This document shows, piece by piece, positions 12,333 to 26,318 of a stretch of DNA of 64,000 bases. The number at the start of each line of letters is the position of its first letter. The first letter of the stretch is position 1. The notes beneath the pieces were generated by a model that saw nothing but the letters and a program-made list of their open reading frames with translations, was not told the origin of the DNA and searched no databases. Source of the DNA: Escherichia phage inny; the sequence record MN850601.1; one strand, written 5' to 3'. The translations under genes and the position numbers were made by a program.

Positions 12333-12425
12333 ACTTGCCTCCTATTTTGTTAAACGAACTTTTATTGTAACACAGAAGAGGCTGTTTTGCAAGTGGAGGG
12401 GGGATAATCCCCCTCTTAGACTCTG

Positions 12426-13028
12426 TTAGATATTGTAAACCTTTGTATGAGTTACTACACCATCTTCTACAAAATCAATACGTTCTTGATCCGTAACTAG
12501 TGCAGACAACACTTTAAATTTAATTTTTACACGTTCAAAAGCTGGTTGACCATCTTTAAGATAATTATGTTCGGTTGTCACTGTCTTGTTTACAAAATCA
12601 ACTTTCGCTTTACCGTTTTCGCGCAAGTGGAATGTTTTTCCTGCTTTATACACAATTTCAACATTACCTTCGAGAGTAATTCCTTCAAAAAGTTCACCCT
12701 CTTCTTCATTTTCTTCACTTTTGAACAGACGACGAAACTCTTCCATATCAAGATAAACAACATCTTCAGAATAACTATCAGTAAGGTATGTCTTACCATC
12801 CATTAACCCGAAATATTGCCAGATCGCAGAATAAACATCACTAGTTGATCCAAGGGTTTCTCTGAGTTTAGTTCCACGGATTACTTCATAAACTTCAAAA
12901 TTGAAACCAGACTGCAAAGCATCAAACAGTACATCACTAACTTCTACAGCATAATCTTGATTGTTGTCAACATCCACAAGAAAATTGCCGCTACGAATAA
13001 GTTTTTGACCTTCTAAAGTAATACCCAT
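12426..13028 (-). CDS. hypothetical protein
   Basis: 200 aa; GAGGAG SD upstream. Confidence 0.55.
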   Translation of the reverse strand: MGITLEGQKLIRSGNFLVDVDNNQDYAVEVSDVLFDALQSGFNFEVYEVIRGTKLRETLGSTSDVYSAIWQYFGLMDGKTYLTDSYSEDVVYLDMEEFRRLFKSEENEEEGELFEGITLEGNVEIVYKAGKTFHLRENGKAKVDFVNKTVTTEHNYLKDGQPAFERVKIKFKVLSALVTDQERIDFVEDGVVTHTKVYNI

Positions 13029-13040
13029 TGTTTTCTCCTC

Positions 13041-13072
13041 TTTTATTTAAAATATGCGCCCCGAAGGGCGCT
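13041..13072 (-). terminator. hairpin GCGCCC-CGAA-GGGCGC downstream of terD-like gene
   Basis: 6-bp GC stem followed by AT-rich tract on minus strand, between 13081 stop and next gene's RBS. Confidence 0.4.
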
Positions 13073-13080
13073 ATGATTTA

Positions 13081-13677
13081 TTACTCGAACCAATCGTCGC
13101 CAGCGCCAAACGCTTTAACTACATCGTAAATGTCAAGCCCAGCTTTACCCACACCATACGCTTTCAGTTTCCATTCGCTATCTTCTCGCACCAGGGAGGC
13201 AACGTGGCAAATGGTATTACCTGCAAGTTCTGGAGCTAAGAAATCAAAATCCAGCAGTTCAACGTTACGTTCATCATCGAAGATTTTAAGGAAACCTTCG
13301 GTAGCGTGACCAAGGCGTTTTTTACCCGTTTCGTCATCAATAGTAATTACGAATGCAATTTCCTGTGCTTCAGCAGAGATATTATCCAGCGTAACATCAA
13401 TCTGCTCCATCTGTCCTACACCGTCACGAACATCTTCACCTGCAAAAGTAGAACGTTCAGGATCAAATTTCTGTGCGTAGCATACCAGGTGGCGAGGAGA
13501 CAACAGTTCCGGCAGACCAGATGCATTGTGTCGGCAAATCAGAGCACTAACATCCAGATCCAGTTTTTCGTTAGATTTCCAAGAGAATTCCAGACGAATG
13601 CGTTTCAGTGCTGGTGCAATCTTTTTCAGAGAAACTTTTTCGCTAGAACCTTTTTTCAGGGAAATTTTCTGAGTCAT
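13081..13677 (-). CDS. terD: TerD-family protein (tellurium-resistance TerD/TerE/TerZ domain)
   Basis: 198 aa; ISLKKGSSEKVSLKK, DLDVSALIC, AFVITIDD, FLKIFDDERNVELLDFDF, EWKLKAYGVGKAGL align with canonical TerD from memory. Confidence 0.85.
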   Translation of the reverse strand: MTQKISLKKGSSEKVSLKKIAPALKRIRLEFSWKSNEKLDLDVSALICRHNASGLPELLSPRHLVCYAQKFDPERSTFAGEDVRDGVGQMEQIDVTLDNISAEAQEIAFVITIDDETGKKRLGHATEGFLKIFDDERNVELLDFDFLAPELAGNTICHVASLVREDSEWKLKAYGVGKAGLDIYDVVKAFGAGDDWFE

Positions 13678-13749
13678 AATTTATTATCTCCTTTGTTGTT
13701 AATTTACGTTGTCTATTTTACTAATCTTTTCTACAAAGTCAAGCGTTTT

Positions 13750-14544
13750 TTACGCTTTTGCTCCAAATTTTTTAACCCACTCGCCAAACTCTTCGGATAG
13801 CAGTTTATCGTAAAGTTCTTCGTCAGACAAGGACAAATCTGCAATACCGATAAAATCAACATTATCGTATTCTTTTGCCAAGTCTTTCAGGAATTTAAAG
13901 TTTGCATTACCTACACCAACCATAAACCAGTAAACAGGAGTGTTGCGGTGTTTGTTCAGCAAACTACGTACTGCTGAAGTATCCATGTTCTCCCCGTCAG
14001 TTTGGAAGAAAATCATTGCAGGAGTACGATCAACTTGTGCATCAGTATCTACAACCTGTTCTACAACAGTACGTGTAACTTCTACACGTTCTTTTTTACC
14101 AGTTAGTTTAGCAAGGAAGCCCTTAGCCGGAACTTCTTCATACTCAACGACTTCGCGTGTAATATTTTTCATAGGTACACTACCGAAGTATGTATCATAG
14201 ATCTCTTGCATTACTGGAGCATAAGCTGTACCACCATTGATGCAAACATTAGACATACAAGAGCCGACATAATCATCATATACATCAGCCGTTGCAGGAG
14301 GCAGTTCAAAAGAAGAACTATTGAAAGCCCACATGTCAATCTGTGCATTATCATCAAACTTCATACCAAACGGCAGCAGCTTACCTACAAAATCACTGAC
14401 AGTGCCATCACGATACAGCTCACACATACTACCCGAAATATCTAAGGCGCTACCTACACGAAGAACAACATCGTTAATCTTTTTCTTACGCAGGGATACA
14501 GTAAGAGTTTCTTGACGTTTTTTAAGACTGATTTTATTGGACAT
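13750..14544 (-). CDS. von Willebrand factor A (vWA) domain protein, TerY-like
   Basis: 264 aa; MIDAS motif VGSALDISGSM; N-terminus MSNKISLKKRQETLTVSLRKK echoes the TerD N-terminal motif. Confidence 0.7.
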   Translation of the reverse strand: MSNKISLKKRQETLTVSLRKKKINDVVLRVGSALDISGSMCELYRDGTVSDFVGKLLPFGMKFDDNAQIDMWAFNSSSFELPPATADVYDDYVGSCMSNVCINGGTAYAPVMQEIYDTYFGSVPMKNITREVVEYEEVPAKGFLAKLTGKKERVEVTRTVVEQVVDTDAQVDRTPAMIFFQTDGENMDTSAVRSLLNKHRNTPVYWFMVGVGNANFKFLKDLAKEYDNVDFIGIADLSLSDEELYDKLLSEEFGEWVKKFGAKA

Positions 14545-14545
14545 A

Positions 14546-14815
14546 TTATTTCTCCTTTCTGACTGTAATGTTAGTAACTTCTAAATCCACTTCTACCACT
14601 TCTGTATCATATAAAATACAGTTAAGTTGACCTCTTTGTGAACCGTTCAGACACATTGCTTGGTTTGTATTAACCTTAATAAACACTAAGTTTCTGAACG
14701 TATCTAAACCAGCATCTTGATAGGCAACATAATATACGAATGTATCACCTGTGTCAAGTTCTCCAAAACATTTAGGTTCATCTGATTTGTCGTCTTTGAT
14801 ATTAAATTTAAGCAC
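14546..14815 (-). CDS. hypothetical protein
   Basis: 89 aa ORF. Confidence 0.5.
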   Translation of the reverse strand: MLKFNIKDDKSDEPKCFGELDTGDTFVYYVAYQDAGLDTFRNLVFIKVNTNQAMCLNGSQRGQLNCILYDTEVVEVDLEVTNITVRKEK

Positions 14816-15371
14816 TGTCTTCTCCTTTACCTGCTCTCAAGCCTAAATAGAAAGCCTCTCTGGTGATCTTTTGCAACTCGTTTAAAGAGATAGTTACAAC
14901 TAAATCATCTTCAATTTCTAGCTTTGAGTCTTCTTCTGTCTCAATGCAAGTATTATGCACTTTGTGGTAAGGATTGTCAACACGTTTAAATTTATTATTT
15001 TCAGTGCTGAAGAAGCAATCTGGATCTTCTTCCCCATCACCCCAACCCTGGTTAGGATCTTCTTCAGATCTTTCTGTTGGGATCTCGCCTGTAAAGTGCT
15101 CTTCTAATACCAGAGCAATCCCATCTCCAAGATCGGAAGAGAACATCAAATTACAAACTTCTTCCCAAGGCATAGACCACTTAAATCTTTTACGATTGCC
15201 ATGTTTATCTTCTTCGTTAGAGAAAACACTACCATAGCTATCATAATTCCCATACATCTCTTCGACAACCTTACCACCTTTCAAAAGAAATAGGTAGCAA
15301 GGAGAGCCATCGAAAGAGGTAGAAAGAGCAGCATTACCAGACTCTTTGCACAAGAAACTAAAACACCCCAT
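14808..15371 (-). CDS. hypothetical acidic protein
   Basis: 187 aa ORF. Confidence 0.5.
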   Translation of the reverse strand: MGCFSFLCKESGNAALSTSFDGSPCYLFLLKGGKVVEEMYGNYDSYGSVFSNEEDKHGNRKRFKWSMPWEEVCNLMFSSDLGDGIALVLEEHFTGEIPTERSEEDPNQGWGDGEEDPDCFFSTENNKFKRVDNPYHKVHNTCIETEEDSKLEIEDDLVVTISLNELQKITREAFYLGLRAGKGEDSA

Positions 15372-15571
15372 TATACACCAGCCTTAAGATCAATTAAAGC
15401 CAAAGTTGTTTCAGAGTGTGTTTGCTCGTCTACAGGTGCAGTCATATGATAATACAAAAAATCTTCGGCATCATACCAATCTGATTCTTGACCTTGTTTC
15501 CAACCATCAATGAAAGCATCTTCCATAATGGTTTGCAATTCTTCACGAGTTAAGTGAATATCTTTACTCAT
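15371..15571 (-). CDS. hypothetical protein
   Basis: 66 aa ORF, overlapping stop/start with neighbours. Confidence 0.45.
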   Translation of the reverse strand: MSKDIHLTREELQTIMEDAFIDGWKQGQESDWYDAEDFLYYHMTAPVDEQTHSETTLALIDLKAGV

Positions 15572-15790: not shown

Positions 15791-16894
15791 TTAAAGTAGA
15801 CCACGTTTAACAGTTTGAATCATACCATCTTCAAGAGATTGCACTTCTTGAATGTAATCAATACGAGCAGCACGGGCTTCAGTGTTGATTCGGTTAGTTT
15901 CTTCCAACATTTTAACTAAGTTTTCTTGATCACGACGCAATGTTTCAATATCCAATACTTGACGATTAGCAAGTTGTGTAGCTTCAATCTGGTTTTGTGC
16001 AGCCAGATCACTACCCATTGCAATAGCAGCATTAAATTCATTCAGTACGTTGTTCTGTGTATCGGCTGCTTTCTTCTGGCGCAGACTTTCAATATACATA
16101 GAAAAGTTTGCAGAGTAAGCAGGAATAACATTGTTCACAATATTACGGGCTGATCGCATCAAACTTGCAGATACTTTCTGCATACTTTGTACACGTGGCC
16201 CCATCTGAACGCACAGTAAGCGTAAGGCTTTCAGGTCTGCAATACGAATTTCAAGCAGATCCATAGTGTCACGAGTACGTTGACGCTCTTCTACTTCATT
16301 TTCAGGTAGTGTATTAAGGCGAACTTCTTCTTTTTCATAAGTAGCTGTTAGAAGCTCTATATCCCTGTTTAAGCTAAGAGCATATTTTGCAATAGCCTCC
16401 TCTAAACGTTGCAGATATCGTAAAGAATCTTCTTCTTTTTTCAAGTCTGTTTGGAGTGTCTTTACCAAACCCTCAATACGATTATTGATGGTGTCAAATT
16501 CTCCAAACAAATCTTCTTTCATACCTAATACTTTCTTAACTAACTTACCTAAACCTTTAGATTGTTTAATAGAATTAGGATCAAGTTGCTTTGCTTGCTT
16601 AATAAGTGCAGTTAAACGTTCACTCATTTCATCTCCCTGAGATGAACGCTGGTGTTTAAGCACTTCAGCATTAAGGTTACGAAGAGTAAGTCCTGCATCA
16701 GCACCAACTTGTTCAATCTCTTCACGAGACATTGGAGGCAGCATTTGTACAGGTCGTGCAACAGCAGGGGCATATACAGGACTTGCATCCATAGCACTTG
16801 GAGCAAACAAAGACTTACTTTTTTCTGTTGTTGCCGTGAATACACTCATTTCAGACGGTTTGCTTTTTACGGCACTGATAAAAGGACTGGACAT
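15791..16894 (-). CDS. TelA/KlaA-like toxic-anion-resistance family protein
   Basis: 367 aa, coiled-coil rich; KQLDPNS and C-terminal LDIETLRRDQENLVKMLEETNRINTEARAAR resemble TelA family as recalled; sits inside the Ter-like cluster. Confidence 0.6.
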   Translation of the reverse strand: MSSPFISAVKSKPSEMSVFTATTEKSKSLFAPSAMDASPVYAPAVARPVQMLPPMSREEIEQVGADAGLTLRNLNAEVLKHQRSSQGDEMSERLTALIKQAKQLDPNSIKQSKGLGKLVKKVLGMKEDLFGEFDTINNRIEGLVKTLQTDLKKEEDSLRYLQRLEEAIAKYALSLNRDIELLTATYEKEEVRLNTLPENEVEERQRTRDTMDLLEIRIADLKALRLLCVQMGPRVQSMQKVSASLMRSARNIVNNVIPAYSANFSMYIESLRQKKAADTQNNVLNEFNAAIAMGSDLAAQNQIEATQLANRQVLDIETLRRDQENLVKMLEETNRINTEARAARIDYIQEVQSLEDGMIQTVKRGLL

Positions 16895-18672: not shown

Positions 18673-19650
18673 TTAAGCAACAGTCTGGTCTTCTTTTTCA
18701 GGGAAGATTAAACTTGCAATAACACCCAACCCAAGAGTACCTAACACAATATACATACTGATCGTCGGATCAATGTGTGCTGGCAGGAAACTCACTTTTG
18801 CGTGCAGAGTTTCTGCAAACGGATGATACATCAGTTTTACACCCACAAACACCAGGACTACGATAACTGCTTTCTCCAGATGAACCAAATACTTCAGTGC
18901 AACACTAAGAACAAAGAACAGAGCACGTAAACCTAAGATTGCACAAAGCATCGAAGAGAACACCAGCAGAGGTTCTTGTGTCACTGCAATTACTGCTGGA
19001 ACAGAGTCTACTGCAAAGATTACGTCTACCATTTCCATTACAAACACACAAACCAGAGCCGGAGTTGCTACACGAACACCATTTTTGATTGTGAAGAACT
19101 TCTCACCATCCATCTGATCAGATACAGGGAACAGCTTACGAACAATACGAGTAGCCCAGTGTTTAGAGTAATCAATTTCTGCATCATTATCCCCAGCGAA
19201 TACCATTTTAGCCGCACAGAAAAGGATGACAGCACCGAAGAAGATATTAACATACCAGCCCAAACTCAACAAGTAAGTACCTACTGCTACAAACACACCT
19301 CGGAAGACAATTGCACCTGCAATACCCCAAAGTAGAATCTTGTGCTGCAAGTGTGTGCTTTTAATACCAAAACTTGCGAAGACTGCCACAAATACTACTA
19401 AGTTATCTACAGAAAGAGATTTCTCCAACACATAACCACTCAAGAACAAGCTCGCAAAATCAGCACCGTGTTGGAAGTATACAAAACCATAGTAGGCTAA
19501 TGATACCCCAATCCAGAAAATTGACCAACCAATTGCAGATTTAAATGAGATCTCTTTGTTTTCTCTGTGTCCAAAGAAGTCAATACAAATCGACAAGACT
19601 AAAATACCCACTAAAACAACCACATCAATAATTGGGAAACCCAGTTGCAT
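18673..19650 (-). CDS. terC: TerC-family integral membrane protein
   Basis: 325 aa polytopic; LEKSLSVDNLVVFVAVF and AVDSVPAVIAV repeat motifs. Confidence 0.8.
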   Translation of the reverse strand: MQLGFPIIDVVVLVGILVLSICIDFFGHRENKEISFKSAIGWSIFWIGVSLAYYGFVYFQHGADFASLFLSGYVLEKSLSVDNLVVFVAVFASFGIKSTHLQHKILLWGIAGAIVFRGVFVAVGTYLLSLGWYVNIFFGAVILFCAAKMVFAGDNDAEIDYSKHWATRIVRKLFPVSDQMDGEKFFTIKNGVRVATPALVCVFVMEMVDVIFAVDSVPAVIAVTQEPLLVFSSMLCAILGLRALFFVLSVALKYLVHLEKAVIVVLVFVGVKLMYHPFAETLHAKVSFLPAHIDPTISMYIVLGTLGLGVIASLIFPEKEDQTVA

Positions 19651-20206: not shown

Positions 20207-20923
20207 TTATTTCAGTTTGTAAACAATTACATTTAAACCTTTGTTCACTAGAGTTTCTTCGATCATAAGTTTTACAATATTCCAAGAACCTCCAGCCAAA
20301 CCACAACCAAGCATTGGTAAACCTACAATTTTACCGCCTGAAGATACAACATCGTCTCCCATACTATCTAACGCATTGTAGATAGCTTCATAATTCAGGT
20401 CACGCTTACCTTCCTCACGACGACTATAACCATATTGTCCATATAAATTATAAATTGTCAAATTGTTTTCTGTATATTTGGTAAACGTACCTAATTTTTT
20501 ATAATCACCACGTTTAGTGGCACAATCTGCTTTAAACGCACCAGGCCACTTGCTTTTAATTTTTGGTGCAATACCACTACCCATAGTGCAAAAACAGTTA
20601 CAGCAGTGTGCTATAGCGTCTATATCGCCTCTCTCGGCTGCTGCTAAAAGATCACCGTATACCTCAATGATACCTGCCGGATAACTTGTTACAATTTCAT
20701 CTTCCCAATACATTTTCTCTACACCACCGATCAGTGCAAAGTTTTGTGTAATGCGATCATCAATATAGTTAAGACCTGAAACATACACAGCGTATTCATC
20801 CTGTGCTGTAATACCTTGCACACGAATTCTTAAGACACCATCTTTATCTGTTGCTACACGCCCAAAATCTTTTTCTGTAATATTGGTGATAGGATCTCCG
20901 AAAGTCATTACTTTATTAGACAT
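20207..20923 (-). CDS. macro-domain (ADP-ribose binding/processing) protein
   Basis: Track ORF trimmed to ATG (MSNKVMTF...) with AAGGGGA SD; IDAIAHCCNCFCTMGSGIA and LPMLGCGLAGGSW resemble macro motifs. Confidence 0.6.
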   Translation of the reverse strand: MSNKVMTFGDPITNITEKDFGRVATDKDGVLRIRVQGITAQDEYAVYVSGLNYIDDRITQNFALIGGVEKMYWEDEIVTSYPAGIIEVYGDLLAAAERGDIDAIAHCCNCFCTMGSGIAPKIKSKWPGAFKADCATKRGDYKKLGTFTKYTENNLTIYNLYGQYGYSRREEGKRDLNYEAIYNALDSMGDDVVSSGGKIVGLPMLGCGLAGGSWNIVKLMIEETLVNKGLNVIVYKLK

Positions 20924-21773
20924 AATAATCCCCTTTAACATTAGGTTTGTTGATAATGTTGCTTTCAAAAAATTGACGTAGGAAATCAAAGTTCTCTTTG
21001 TATTTTTCAATGTTATTGTAACCTTCTGCAAGGCAACCAAAGAACAGTTGTTCTACATAATACAAAGGAAGTTGTGAAAGTGCAATTTTAAAATCAACTT
21101 CGCTTTGACTCATTAGATACTTAATAGGACGAACCAAACATTTAGCATCAGCTTCTTGCTTAATCATTTTAATAAAAGCTGCCAGATTATTGATATAGTT
21201 GAAGTTAAGTGCAGCTTCGGTGTTGGCTTCTGTACCTTCATACTTTGCAAAGTACAGGAAAAACGTATCGTTTTCAACACCTTCTTTGTCTAAAATTTCA
21301 ATAAGTTTTTCTTCGTGTGTTCCTGTAATATTAACATCATCAATGAAAATCAGAGTTTTATTACCCCAGAAATCACGATTGATAGAGAAAGTGTCACCAT
21401 CGATCAAAGCCTTACGATCTTCTTTGCTAAGAAATCCATAATCATTGATATAGCTCACTTTACGATGAACGATATCCCACTCCACTGGTTTACCACCTTT
21501 GATAGAGATTAGGTAGTTGAGGTGATCTACAAAATGTTCAGATAACACTGTAGCTGCATTTTTCACATAGTTATATGGAGATGGAATAACAACAAAACTT
21601 TCATTTACCAGTCGTTCTTCATACTTAGAAAAGAAACTTTCAGCCAGAATGCGCCCCATTCTTTTTGCTGCCTGGTTACTACCAAACTTTAGTTTGGAAT
21701 AATCTGCAATGTTAAATTTTGCTTCCTTCAGGTTAGTAAAAGTATTAGCAAAATGTTGAATTTGATTACGCAT
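20916..21773 (-). CDS. phosphoribosyltransferase (PRTase)-like protein
   Basis: 285 aa; TLIFIDDVNITGTH resembles PRPP-binding motif. Confidence 0.5.
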   Translation of the reverse strand: MRNQIQHFANTFTNLKEAKFNIADYSKLKFGSNQAAKRMGRILAESFFSKYEERLVNESFVVIPSPYNYVKNAATVLSEHFVDHLNYLISIKGGKPVEWDIVHRKVSYINDYGFLSKEDRKALIDGDTFSINRDFWGNKTLIFIDDVNITGTHEEKLIEILDKEGVENDTFFLYFAKYEGTEANTEAALNFNYINNLAAFIKMIKQEADAKCLVRPIKYLMSQSEVDFKIALSQLPLYYVEQLFFGCLAEGYNNIEKYKENFDFLRQFFESNIINKPNVKGDYYV

Positions 21774-22422
21774 TAATAAGTTCCTCTTTTTTAAGTTTAG
21801 CCAACAAGTCTTCTGGATTAATAATATGACAGAACTTCATCCCTATGTCAACAGCTTTTCCATCATAAATCAAACTATCTCCAACGTGTAAAATCTCTTC
21901 TGGTGCGAGATCAAACGTCACCATTTCATCAAAAGAGAGTTTAAAAAACCTAGGATCTGGTTTACACAAGCAAAACTCGTCAGAAAAATGCATAAAGTCA
22001 AATGGTAATTTTGTTAAGCCAGAATATACAGCTAAGAAACTACCTGGTACAAAATTAGTATTGCTCTTAATACTCAAAGAGTAGGTTGAACTTAGCTCTT
22101 CCAACTTCTTGCAAAGTTCAGGATTCAATGTTGGAGGATGTTTTATAAACATTGCCAAACAATCTCTTTTTAACCCATCCACTTTATCAAGATCAATGTT
22201 CAAACGAGTAGAAAGTGTTACCCAAGCATCCTTAGACGTTCCACAAATGCCTTTTTCTGCTTTTAAATCCAAGAAAGTTTTTACCTCTTTGTATACGGTA
22301 GCTGCTTCTGCCTCAGAGCAAGAGGCATACTCGGCAATAACCTTGTTGCGCTCTTCTGCATACAAAGGGTTAGCAGTAATAAGAGTATTCCATACATCAA
22401 AAGAAATATGCTTAACAGTCAT
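21766..22422 (-). CDS. HAD-superfamily hydrolase
   Basis: Track ORF trimmed to ATG (MTVKH...) with GGAGGA SD; motif I ISFDVWNTL, motif IV HVGDSLIYDG. Confidence 0.55.
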   Translation of the reverse strand: MTVKHISFDVWNTLITANPLYAEERNKVIAEYASCSEAEAATVYKEVKTFLDLKAEKGICGTSKDAWVTLSTRLNIDLDKVDGLKRDCLAMFIKHPPTLNPELCKKLEELSSTYSLSIKSNTNFVPGSFLAVYSGLTKLPFDFMHFSDEFCLCKPDPRFFKLSFDEMVTFDLAPEEILHVGDSLIYDGKAVDIGMKFCHIINPEDLLAKLKKEELINA

Positions 22423-22591
22423 TTTTAATCCTCCGTCCAAAAGAATATCATCTGCTTAATTTTATTGATTTCTTGATGTAGTAACTTTCCAGCATGTGAT
22501 TGATCTTTAATATTGACAGCAAGAATTTCAAGTTCCGTTAGTTTTTCTTGGATAGCTTTATATTCATCATCTGTAAGCATTTTCTTCCCCT

Positions 22592-24010: not shown

Positions 24011-24481
24011 TTAGTCAGATTCCCAAATGTTGTCTTTCTTAACCCACATTCGTTGATTATCTGAACCTCTATAACGTTTCGTTGTTGGTTGATTCATATC
24101 ATACTTACCATCTATCACTATGTCAACCAGTTTTTTAATTTTCTCTGGAATTTCTTCAAAAAGATATCCTGTATATAAGACAATATCTTTTTTGTTTCCA
24201 AAACAATCTCTTACCTTCTCAAGAACATACTCTACAGTGTCAATGTTCTCTTTGTCAAGAGGTTCACCACCTAAAACTGTTAATCCTTTAATGAAAGGTC
24301 GAGATAAATCTTCCAAGATAAGATCTAATGTTTCAGTAGTGAACTCTTGTCCGTAGTTATACGACCAGGCTTTCTGGTTAAAGCAGCCACGGCAACCGTG
24401 GCTACAACCGCTCACCCACAAAGAGCATCTTACACCATCACCGTTGAGCATGTCAACAGGTTCATATCCGGCGTAATTCAA
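24011..24481 (-). CDS. nrdG: anaerobic ribonucleotide reductase activating protein (radical SAM)
   Basis: 156 aa; LNGDGVRCSLWVSGCSHGCRGCFN (CxxxCxxC cluster); directly downstream of nrdD. Confidence 0.9.
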   Translation of the reverse strand: MNYAGYEPVDMLNGDGVRCSLWVSGCSHGCRGCFNQKAWSYNYGQEFTTETLDLILEDLSRPFIKGLTVLGGEPLDKENIDTVEYVLEKVRDCFGNKKDIVLYTGYLFEEIPEKIKKLVDIVIDGKYDMNQPTTKRYRGSDNQRMWVKKDNIWESD

Positions 24482-26277
24482 AAATGTTTCTCCCTTTCTA
24501 GTACCTCTTGCATTTTACCTTTATTATAAGGGCGAGAGTTAGGGGCAGAAAGGTATCCTGACACTCTTCTGATTACAGATATAGATTCTTCCTCATGATT
24601 GCCACAACTTGGACACTCGAAGCCTTTAGCTGTTGCCTTAAATTCACCATGAAAACCACATTTGAAACACTGATCTACAGGTTGGTTCACGCCAAAATAA
24701 GGAATTTTGTTGTAGGCATAATCTACAAGAGTTTCCAGTGCTTGCAAGTTATTTTTAAGGTTTGGTGTTTCTACATAACCTATGTTCCCACCGTTACTGA
24801 TTTGTGCAAAACCTTCCTCATAATCCCACTTTTGGAACGGGGTAGTGTGCATCCACACAGGTTGATGGAAAGAGTTTGTCAAGTAGTCACGATCAATAGA
24901 ACCAGGATAGCGATCATTTAATGCTTTGGCAAATTTATAGCACAAGGATTCTGCTGGTGTTCCATACAAACTAAAAGCTAAACCAGAACGTTCTTTAAAT
25001 GTGCCACAGATATCCTTCATATATTGAAGGATGTTTTTACCCATTGCTTTTGGATTGGTGTTACCTGGGTATAAAATCTCCATAGCTTCTGCTAAACCTA
25101 CATAACCGATACTAATAGAGGCATAACCACCTTCAAATAGTTTACCAATCTCTTCATTAGCTTCTAGTCGAGCTAAAGCCCCTTCCATAAACAATGTAGG
25201 GTTTTGAGATGCTTTGGTATGTCTAATACGGTTAACACGTAGCATATGTGCCTTATACGCCATCTCCATATGTTGTTCCAACAGTTCAGTAAATAAGATG
25301 CCCTTTTCACGGGACTCTGCTGCAATGATAGGTAAGTTTAAAGAAACTACGCCTAAGTTGAAACGACCATCATATTTTTCACCTTGCTCTGTTGCATAGT
25401 ATGACAAGAAGCTACGGCAACCCATGCTTGTGACGCGACCATCTGAAGATCCTGTAACTTCTTTATTTAAAGGTACAGAGATAAAATCAGGATAAATGCG
25501 TTCAGCACAACACTCCATTGCCAGTTGCTTCAAATCATAGTTTGGATCGCCAGCTTTCATGTTAACACCATCTTCCAAGAAGAAGATAACTTTAGGAAAC
25601 ACAGGAGTTACCCTATCTTTTCCCAATCCTTGTTTGTGCACCATTAGGTAGTTTTTAGTGATCATTCTACCAAAAGCAGAGGTATCCAAACCTAAACTAA
25701 TTGTTATAAAAGGTGACTGACCATTTACACTCATTAGAGTGTTCACCTGGTAGATTAAAGTTTGCATTGCATCATAGACCTGTTTATCTACCATACGCAT
25801 AGCAATATCATAATCGCCAACATCGGCATATATTTTATTAAAACTTGCTTTAACGTATTGACTAAGCCCAGTATCAACATGTGCACAAGTTTGTCCACCA
25901 TATTGGCTAGAAGCTACTGCTTGAATAATTTGAGTTAGGACAGTAGTCGCTACACCGATAGATTTTGGTTTTTCAATATGTGCATTACCAATACGGAAAC
26001 CGTTCTCAAGCATATCTTGGTAATTTACCAGGCAACAATTAGTTAAAGGTGAGAGTAAATAATCTAAATCGTGAATGTGACCATACCCACTTTTATGCCA
26101 TTCTGCCAGATCTTCCGGTAAAATATGGGTCATTGCCATGTGCTTGCTTAGGATACCTGCTAGTAAGTCTCGGTGAGTATTAACAATCATTGCAGGTTTG
26201 TTTGCATTTTCACGAGTAAATTCTTCGGATGTTTGTTCGAGGAATCCGATTACATCCTCATATAGTTTTTGGGTCAT
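24478..26277 (-). CDS. nrdD: anaerobic ribonucleoside-triphosphate reductase
   Basis: Track ORF trimmed to ATG (MTQKLYED...) with GGAGGA SD; C-terminal zinc ribbon CFKCGF...CPSCGN and glycyl-radical region IRRVSGYLSAPNSRPYNKGK. Confidence 0.92.
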   Translation of the reverse strand: MTQKLYEDVIGFLEQTSEEFTRENANKPAMIVNTHRDLLAGILSKHMAMTHILPEDLAEWHKSGYGHIHDLDYLLSPLTNCCLVNYQDMLENGFRIGNAHIEKPKSIGVATTVLTQIIQAVASSQYGGQTCAHVDTGLSQYVKASFNKIYADVGDYDIAMRMVDKQVYDAMQTLIYQVNTLMSVNGQSPFITISLGLDTSAFGRMITKNYLMVHKQGLGKDRVTPVFPKVIFFLEDGVNMKAGDPNYDLKQLAMECCAERIYPDFISVPLNKEVTGSSDGRVTSMGCRSFLSYYATEQGEKYDGRFNLGVVSLNLPIIAAESREKGILFTELLEQHMEMAYKAHMLRVNRIRHTKASQNPTLFMEGALARLEANEEIGKLFEGGYASISIGYVGLAEAMEILYPGNTNPKAMGKNILQYMKDICGTFKERSGLAFSLYGTPAESLCYKFAKALNDRYPGSIDRDYLTNSFHQPVWMHTTPFQKWDYEEGFAQISNGGNIGYVETPNLKNNLQALETLVDYAYNKIPYFGVNQPVDQCFKCGFHGEFKATAKGFECPSCGNHEEESISVIRRVSGYLSAPNSRPYNKGKMQEVLEREKHF

Positions 26278-26290
26278 TAATCCTCCGTGG

Positions 26291-26318
26291 AAAATAAAAG
26301 CCAGCATTAAGCTGGCTT
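26291..26318 (-). promoter_or_regulatory. stem-loop AAGCCAGC-N5-GCTGGCTT + T tract abutting nrdD RBS (terminator/attenuator)
   Basis: 8-bp perfect stem followed on minus strand by TTTTATTTT, about 14 nt upstream of nrdD ATG. Confidence 0.5.

Follow-up and report, generated by a model that had tools for sequence, protein, structure and literature searches.

A two-unit element preceding the vWA domain of TerF-like proteins resembles the N-terminus of TerD and varies with the TerD of the same locus

RESULTS

The vWA and TerD genes of Escherichia phage inny

Ter systems are widespread on plasmids, pathogenicity islands and phages and have been associated with resistance to tellurite, colicin and phage; their soluble components are TerD paralogues, the vWA protein TerF, TelA and TerB. 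The DNA analysed here (the window) comprises 64,000 nt of Escherichia phage inny (MN850601.1), to which all coordinates refer, and carries on its minus strand a ter gene cluster made up of HAD, PRTase_3, Macro, TerC, TelA, vWA-TerF-like and TerD genes. We focus on the N-terminal element of the vWA protein, a peptide of about 22 residues that resembles the start of the TerD protein encoded beside it. Escherichia phage ALITA and its relatives (Stephanstirmvirinae, Justusliebigvirus) share ~99% identity with the 3-kb stretch that holds both genes (12400-15400).

The vWA gene (13750-14544, minus strand) has an ATG start and encodes a protein of 264 aa, the translation of which begins MSNKISLKKRQETLTVSLRKKKINDVVLRVGSALDISGSM. 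The protein is a member of the vWA-TerF-like family (Pfam PF10138; 134.5 bits against a cut-off of 29.4, E=7.2e-39), the only other domain match being a weak one to PF00092; that is, the chain lacks the TerD domain that would make it a TerF proper. The element, MSNKISLKKRQETLTVSLRKKK (residues 1-22; 14479..14544, minus strand), consists of two units, ISLKK (residues 5-9; 14518..14532) and VSLRK (residues 16-20; 14485..14499). It is followed by strand β1 (LRVGSAL) and then by the metal ion-dependent adhesion site (MIDAS) motif DISGSM (residues 35-40; 14425-14442), the motif before which an earlier note on this DNA, made from the sequence alone, had placed the peptide. The vWA domain proper, with its C-terminal helices and the stop codon, occupies 13750..14478 and also carries the GGT and TDG motifs. 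In an alignment of 34 homologues the MIDAS residues D35, S37, S39 and D183 do not vary, and conservation of T106 is 90% or higher. An AlphaFold2 (AF2) model built on the same 34 sequences shows a vWA alpha/beta fold (predicted local distance difference test score, pLDDT, 89.8; predicted template modelling score, pTM, 0.81), for which Foldseek returned BON1, MDN1-MIDAS, integrin I domains and RGLG at E ~1e-6; BON1 was also the nearest solved vWA structure by sequence profile (E=6e-5). The similarity to copine/BONZAI proteins is limited to the vWA core, and Pfam and profile searches revealed no C2 domain in the protein. A long beta-hairpin inserted in the vWA domain (residues ~121-170; 14035..14184, minus strand; AF2 strands 125-139 and 151-165) is specific to the phage clade, bacterial and fusion homologues having a gap at this position of the alignment.

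The TerD gene (13081-13677, minus strand) lies 72 bp downstream of the vWA gene and encodes 198 aa beginning MTQKISLKKGSSEKVSLKKIAP. Ca binding is a property of TerD proteins; the phage protein was identified by Pfam PF02342 (98.2 bits against a cut-off of 25.3, E=5e-28) and by matches to the solved structures 2kxt (E=8.6e-15) and 3ibz (E=3.3e-13), in which the alignment starts at residue 5. Its N-terminal motif, MTQKISLKKGSSEKVSLKK (residues 1-19; 13621..13677, minus strand), is made up of ISLKK and VSLKK with a KG turn between them, and belongs to the TerD domain model from residue 5 onwards; as regards the Ca2+-binding motifs, the structure-search alignment sets FAGEDVRDGVGQ of the phage protein opposite HTGDNRTGEGDGDD of 2kxt. 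The Lys-Gly turn was found in all of the 132 TerD sequences compared (132/132).

Both proteins thus open with two units, ISLKK and VSL(R/K)K, the first being identical in the two. BLASTP aligned vWA residues 1-20 with TerD residues 1-19 at 11/20 identities (E=0.086), and the open reading frame (ORF) translations bear out the resemblance that the earlier note had reported, with its quoted sequences exact. When residues 2-24 were shuffled with their composition kept, the observed local score was reached in 350 of 20000 trials with one side shuffled and in 208 of 20000 with both. Among the N-termini of 218 window ORFs, that of the vWA protein ranks top after TerD itself, and a spurious 63-aa ORF scores nearly as high. 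The Pfam TerD model found no TerD match in the first 30-47 vWA residues, nor in the pre-vWA segments of a TerD-vWA fusion and a Paenibacillus homologue. Taken alone, the sequences of the window pair are alike only marginally beyond chance; the likeness is judged real because the element is conserved in homologues and is paired with the cognate TerD, as described below.

Conservation of the element in the vWA-TerF-like family

Every full-length stand-alone member among 64 homologues from a 90%-clustered collection starts with the same pattern. In the 34-homologue alignment, which reaches down to ~25-30% identity, L18 never varies and L7, K9 and K20 are conserved in at least 90% of the sequences, so that the low-complexity, lysine-rich artefact without conservation that the earlier note had considered as a way in which the likeness could be spurious does not apply; to judge from this alignment, the conservation of these four positions is on a par with that of the MIDAS residues. 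A profile search of 1.84 billion representative sequences retrieved 2461 family members, and nearly all of the best 150 of these (less than 50% mutual identity) have two, sometimes three, h-x-L-x-K units directly before β1. At least two such units within the 30 residues preceding β1 were present in 296 of 323 usable members; among control windows cut from these proteins, 49 of 2246 had them. The PF10138 model begins at β1, and the element therefore falls outside the annotated domain. Unit-to-unit spacing varies from 7 to 12 residues, and some members show a heptad-like spacing with VNLSKxx repeats.

In a large gut-phage clade the vWA protein has a MGLFxKLFGKK leader and a low-complexity stretch before three units, the element thus being internal, and the last two units carry a TerD-like KG turn (IDMSKGSKIDMTKH). 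The additional N-terminal peptide, MG(L/F)FxKLFGKK, was seen in viral contigs from gut metagenomes (L042, L051, L054, L056, L061, L064-L074, L097 and others) and looks, from its sequence, like an amphipathic membrane anchor.

Stand-alone vWA genes lie in ter clusters, adjoining TerD, TerC, TelA and TerB. A dependence of the two-unit element on a nearby TerD gene, considered for the stand-alone vWA genes, was ruled out (Fisher p=0.63; counts below). Many stand-alone vWA-TerF-like genes of Ruminococcus and Oscillospiraceae genomes (L116, L119, L121-L124, L128-L167), with no TerD gene within 10 kb, have a variant of the element, LTKNPELNKKISLRKEIVLDEVK, that is degenerate in its second unit.

Co-variation of the element with TerD of the same locus

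The 277 loci that we collected, some of them overlapping on one contig, came from one plasmid, from bacterial genomes and viral contigs, and from assemblies in which homologues occur. Hidden Markov models served to place the vWA and TerD ORFs of each locus, and co-variation was judged in loci that have the two as separate genes. As the statistic we took the local BLOSUM62 score of the vWA element against the TerD N-terminus; the pairing of loci was permuted after dereplication on the identity of the vWA body.

In the separate-gene loci the likeness of the element to the TerD N-terminus of its own locus goes far beyond what membership of the two families would require. Where the window has KISLKK...VSLRK in vWA and KISLKK...VSLKK in TerD, L011 has MAKVSLKK...KVSLKK and MAKVSLKK...KVSLRK, L018 has LSLEK...LSLEK and LTLEK...LSLEK, L029 has MELLNLNKT and MEMLNLSKT, and L190 has IELDK and INLDK, respectively. 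I-x-LEK is found in both proteins of L003, L196 (INLEK) and L270, and AGINL in both proteins of L195. In L025/L026 the vWA protein starts with MDFDL(A/S)KK...TFTFEL and TerD with MADFDLSKGQTFDL (DFDLSK). In the gut-phage clade Met replaces Leu in both proteins (vWA IDMSK...IDMSKGSKIDMTK, TerD VINMSKNQKISMxK), and in the sister loci of this clade (L059, L106, L218, L242) both proteins have Leu, with KVDLTK in each.

The 26-aa element compared with the 21-aa TerD N-terminus gave z ~7.3 (n=47), 4.0 (n=24-25), 3.8 (n=18-19) and 3.2 (n=9-13). With the units alone z was 8.6, 6.2 and 5.5 at 90, 60 and 45% dereplication, and none of 10000 permutations reached the observed value (median run). The excess persisted when the residues before unit 1 were dropped (z=3.9-6.7) and when both the window clade and the Met clade were left out (z=3.3-4.7, p ~0.001 or less). 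It was absent when the vWA linker and β1 were compared with the next 18 TerD residues, which are the adjacent segments in both proteins (z -0.3 to 0.5), and when a 26-31-aa piece of the vWA body was used (z ~0). Shuffling the residues of the element while keeping its composition left z ~1-2, indicating that composition contributes a little. Within unit 1, identity in paired and unpaired combinations was 0.87 and 0.52 at h1, 0.53 and 0.30 at x2, 0.96 and 0.87 at L3, and 0.43 and 0.19 at x4. An exact TerD pentapeptide occurs in the vWA element of ~20-23% of dereplicated loci, compared with 3.5-3.9% of non-cognate pairs, and a search of the other ORFs of the loci for locus-specific TerD units gave a single match for 66 unit sets.

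The nucleotide sequences were compared as well. The longest exact match had a median of 8 nt and a maximum of 15 in own pairs, and a median of 7 and a maximum of 15 in unpaired combinations; matches of 14-15 nt were seen in the L056 and L195 pairs. The similar island spans only 45-60 nt between unrelated flanks. The Ser codon of unit 1 is AGT in vWA and TCC in TerD, both in the window and in L007, the vWA proteins of which are 73% identical. Because DNA matches are no longer in own pairs, the Ser codons come from different families and the paired excess ends after unit 2, selection on the peptide is a simpler account of these sequences than homogenisation of the DNA.

TerD-vWA fusions and the IncHI2 operon

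Fusions with the TerF architecture are abundant: one fusion query gave 2744 matches, and the best 120 of them are nearly all TerD+vWA. In all fusions inspected the order is a TerD domain with its own N-terminus (e.g. MQLLKGQKVDVTK), a low-complexity linker, the element (e.g. IDLRKKIVQITLEKKKL), β1 and the MIDAS. The element is therefore part of the vWA module, since it lies internally between a disordered linker and β1, and it is not a leftover of the fused TerD, since a fusion has a TerD N-terminus as well as the element ahead of vWA. A free N-terminus is likewise unnecessary, given that the element is internal both here and in the gut-phage clade.

In the canonical IncHI2 terZABCDEF operon the pre-vWA region of TerF reads RISLEKKLETRSPRLVSLAKKASVSLTKNKL, and its last two units (VSLAKKASVSLTK) agree, spacing included, with the N-termini of TerE and TerD, both stand-alone proteins (VSLVKGGNVSLTK), the N-termini of these two proteins being MAVSLVKGGNVSLTK and MSVSLSKGGNVSLSK. 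The N-terminus of TerF itself, VNLQSGQNIPLQQS, is not the match of its pre-vWA element. The fused TerD domain as the template of the element was ruled out by an intramolecular test on 114 fusions (see below). The match of the TerF units to stand-alone TerE/TerD and not to TerF's own N-terminus suggests that the template of the mimic is the stand-alone TerD paralogues. A further protein with such units is TerA of the IncHI2 plasmid pIOMTU792 (L277 7075-8232), in which three tandem units, KISLSKVSLTKEKPAISLTK, lie between a Pro/Ala-rich linker and a C-terminal TerD-like domain. These units (ISLSK/VSLTK/ISLTK) are one more than a TerD N-terminus needs, and recall the pre-vWA element of TerF.

Predicted structures of the two copies

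The earlier note had described one peptide on two different folds, which is correct, and in AF2 models even the secondary structure of the peptide differs between them. The comparison concerns monomer predictions, made for the window vWA protein and for the fusion P0057 (85-sequence alignment, pLDDT 90.0). In P0057 the motif at the TerD N-terminus is modelled as a pair of short strands (residues 3-5 and 10-12), the linker (194-218) is disordered with pLDDT below 50, and the pre-vWA element is predicted as a helix (residues 221-235). In the window vWA protein, residues 7-20 of the element are likewise predicted to be alpha-helical (pLDDT ~93 for residues 11-20).

DISCUSSION

A candidate recognition peptide and the evidence against it

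We consider that the element could be a TerD-mimicking recognition peptide that couples the vWA protein to TerD and is kept matched by selection at the protein level, a reading to which we give a probability of about one half. The first ~22 residues of the vWA protein are a conserved add-on of two h-x-L-x-K units just before strand β1, which would imitate the N-terminal β1-turn-β2 motif of stand-alone TerD, and protein-level selection would keep this add-on matched to the TerD encoded in its own locus. Such matching would most likely arise because both peptides are read by one binding site. This site may lie on a Ter partner common to the two proteins or on TerD itself, the contact in the latter case being a pseudo-homotypic pairing or a swap of the N-terminal hairpin. 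The peptide would thereby couple the metal-binding vWA module to TerD non-covalently, as TerF does covalently. A peptide that docks by mimicry should follow its original across lineages, and such tracking was found in the paired as against permuted comparisons (z=3.3-8.6). A functional link between vWA and TerD is implied independently, as TerD-vWA fusions are common and stand-alone vWA genes lie in ter clusters. The common interaction element proposed in the earlier note thus finds indirect support in family conservation and in locus-specific co-variation with TerD; that vWA and TerD, or a common partner, are physically bound through the element is what we infer from these sequences.

Several observations weigh against this proposal. 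The two copies may not be structurally equivalent, given the helix predicted for vWA and the strands predicted for TerD, and the invariant Lys-Gly turn of TerD, set beside the Lys-Lys or Lys-Arg that replaces it in 227 of the 296 vWA elements and the spacing of 7-12 residues, agrees with such a difference. The differing predicted conformation is the main argument against true structural mimicry, and the predicted vWA helix is left unexplained by a recognition peptide. In the P0057 model the two domains are not docked onto each other and their relative position is undefined (pTM 0.55). Two units are kept in 11 of 14 cases without a TerD gene within 8-10 kb, compared with 17 of 19 with one; TerD may be encoded elsewhere in the genomes concerned, or the element may have a TerD-independent role. 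In the 114 fusions the element shows no resemblance to the N-terminus of the fused TerD (17-19, compared with 26-31 in split pairs) and no paired excess. Family N-terminal profiles compared with hhalign gave a probability of 13% (P=0.002, 38 columns in register), which is too weak for homology of the vWA and TerD N-terminal regions at the family level. Where residues are identical, the codons are also identical somewhat more often than expected (133 observed, 109 expected, z=3.3), which may reflect codon preferences at 5′ ends. Finally, the independent lineages behind the co-variation are modest in number, ~10-25, and mostly phage contigs.

Alternative explanations

The element might instead be purely structural, that is, an N-terminal helix (α0) packing on the vWA domain, in which case the likeness to TerD would be a convergence of short, amphipathic, lysine-rich segments that share no partner. 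The confident AF2 helix in two distant subfamilies would agree with this, as would the absence of the Lys-Gly turn from most vWA elements, the heptad-like VNLSKxx spacing of some members, the persistence of the element without a neighbouring TerD and the weak profile-profile similarity. A packing helix leaves unexplained, however, why h1, x2 and x4 track the cognate TerD and why the excess is confined to the motif, with none in the adjacent residues or the vWA body; moreover, the gut-phage clade has a TerD-like KG version, and a unit spacing of 7-12 residues fits poorly with a helix that packs through one constant face. We regard this alternative as doubtful, though it should be kept in mind. 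The matching could also have arisen in the DNA, the 5′ regions of the two adjoining genes undergoing short-tract gene conversion or repeatedly exchanging segments, with no function common to the proteins. Separated genes do lie within ~0.6-3.6 kb of each other, and the modest excess of identical codons and the exact matches in L056 and L195 are what such exchange could leave behind. This account is nevertheless improbable: own pairs share no longer exact matches than unpaired ones, the Ser codon families differ in the window and in L007, the similar island is short, with unrelated flanks and a paired excess that breaks off right after unit 2, and the vWA gene of the gut-phage clade has the element in its interior.

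A third origin, raised in the earlier note as a fusion or duplication history, is that the first two TerD strands came to stand in front of vWA through an ancestral chimera or fusion, the likeness reflecting common descent and any present function being unrelated to TerD. The abundance of fusions, the in-register alignment of the 38 N-terminal columns and the extra ISLSK/VSLTK/ISLTK units after the linker of IncHI2 TerA are all in keeping with descent from TerD. Descent alone, though, predicts equal similarity in paired and unpaired combinations, which differ in our data, and the fusions hold a full TerD N-terminus together with an element unlike it; with an hhalign probability as low as that given above, the simple form of the relic is not upheld and we think it unlikely, while as an account of origin it is compatible with a recognition peptide. 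The same note had suggested a targeting element, and both peptides are indeed amphipathic and rich in lysine; PMC7824862 presumes that Ter proteins have their site of action at the membrane. A common N-terminal targeting or membrane-association signal is still very hard to reconcile with an element that is internal in the fusions, after a disordered linker, and in the gut-phage clade, where a separate MGLFxKLFGKK leader precedes it, with a TerD motif that lies within a folded domain, and with residue-by-residue matching, which generic membrane binding would not require; we consider it most improbable. None of these alternatives explains the motif-confined paired excess as simply as a recognition peptide does.

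A more speculative extension of the recognition peptide, which we put forward with considerable reserve, is that the element may act as a lineage-specific address code. It would then be a chameleon peptide, resting on vWA as a helix and on activation pairing with, or replacing, the N-terminal beta-hairpin of the cognate TerD, which could give rise to TerD-vWA arrays under the membrane. Each Ter system would assemble with itself only, as the co-variation of h1, x2 and x4 might suggest, and a phage module would be insulated from, or interfere selectively with, the Ter system of the host.

Relation to known systems

Neither the ter cluster nor TerD nor the vWA-TerF-like family is new. Among the closest known systems is TerF of terZABCDEF operons (IncHI2 plasmids, E. 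coli O157 island), which has the same vWA subfamily (PF10138, 'vWA found in TerF C terminus') and the same MIDAS motif, pre-β1 units ISLEK, VSLAK and VSLTK before AVAFVLDASGSM, and a ter-locus context of TerD, TerC and TelA. It differs in that its chain includes a TerD domain and a Pro/Ala-rich linker, whereas the window protein is the vWA module alone, with TerD encoded by a separate downstream gene, the reverse of the TerF domain order, and with a beta-hairpin insertion of ~45 residues in the phage vWA. Proteins of the TerD family (PF02342; 2kxt/2kxv, 3ibz) share the h-S-L-x-K ... h-S-L-x-K pattern at the extreme N-terminus. In these proteins, though, the motif forms strands β1 and β2 of the domain around the invariant Lys-Gly turn, whereas the vWA element stands ahead of an alpha/beta fold that is unrelated, in most cases has no Gly, and is modelled as a helix. 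Copines/BONZAI (C2-C2-vWA) and RGLG are the nearest solved vWA structures by profile and fold, and the copine architecture, a Ca-binding beta-sandwich with a vWA domain, is analogous; these proteins are eukaryotic, however, with C2 instead of TerD domains and no TerD-like peptide, and the likeness is limited to the vWA core. Docking by strand or peptide mimicry, such as donor-strand complementation in chaperone-usher pili or short linear motif mimicry, embodies the same concept of a copy of the partner's terminal strand or peptide that is kept matching. It serves here purely as an analogy, the vWA element being known from its sequence and from monomer models.

Phage-borne clusters of terC, terF-type vWA, terD and telA occur in Klebsiella phage phiKp34 and in jumbo phages, according to passages of PMC8386662 and PMC7824862, in which superinfection exclusion or a stress response is suggested as their role. 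These clusters have the same gene set as the window, in a virulent phage, and those passages make no mention of the N-terminal element or of its TerD match (PMC8386662, PMC7824862). The accessible literature, which does not include the main comparative Ter paper, yielded no description of the pre-β1 element, its likeness to TerD or the co-variation; the locus-specific co-variation is a new observation here.

A conserved, matched peptide outside the annotated domains would offer a mutable handle on the assembly of Ter components, and for annotation it implies that the functional unit of PF10138 proteins begins ~25 residues upstream of the Pfam boundary. If the recognition peptide is real, swapping ~15 residues should rewire or break the vWA-TerD partnership. 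It would also account for the occurrence of TerD and vWA either fused, as in TerF, or as neighbours, and a specificity code of this kind could keep phage and host Ter modules apart.

Other genes of the ter cluster

The TerD, TelA, TerC, PRTase_3 and HAD genes are all on the same strand as the vWA gene and within 9 kb of it, which places the vWA gene in a ter locus. Upstream of vWA on the minus strand are the genes for TelA (15791..16894; PF05816, E=5e-34) and the membrane protein TerC (18673..19650; PF03741, E=1e-38), followed by a block of Ter-associated metabolite-synthesis genes identified by Pfam (20207..22440), that is, a Macro domain protein (20207-21040; PF01661), a ComF-like PRTase_3 protein (20916-21773; PF15610, E=1e-41) and a HAD hydrolase (21766-22440; PF00702). 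With PRTase_3, HAD and Macro adjoining TerC, the phage Ter system is fairly complete. The Macro ORF as listed has a TTG start and overlaps the PRTase gene by 125 nt, and an internal MSNKVMTF is therefore probably its true start. Further along the window are the genes for the anaerobic ribonucleotide reductase proteins NrdD and NrdG (24011-26307).

Directly downstream of terD lies an ORF of 200 aa (12426-13028, minus strand) that is annotated as hypothetical in related phages and gave no Pfam match. It begins MGITLEGQKLIR, faintly like the TerD motif I-S-L-x-K-G-Q-K, and GITLEGN is repeated at about residue 113. In the phage-like contig L003 (4895-5986 and 8466-9347) a TelA homologue begins MSLNLNLPK, and a 293-aa neighbour with no recorded family contains several LNLPKP repeats; the LNLPK-type stretch may be a second short motif common to Ter-locus proteins.

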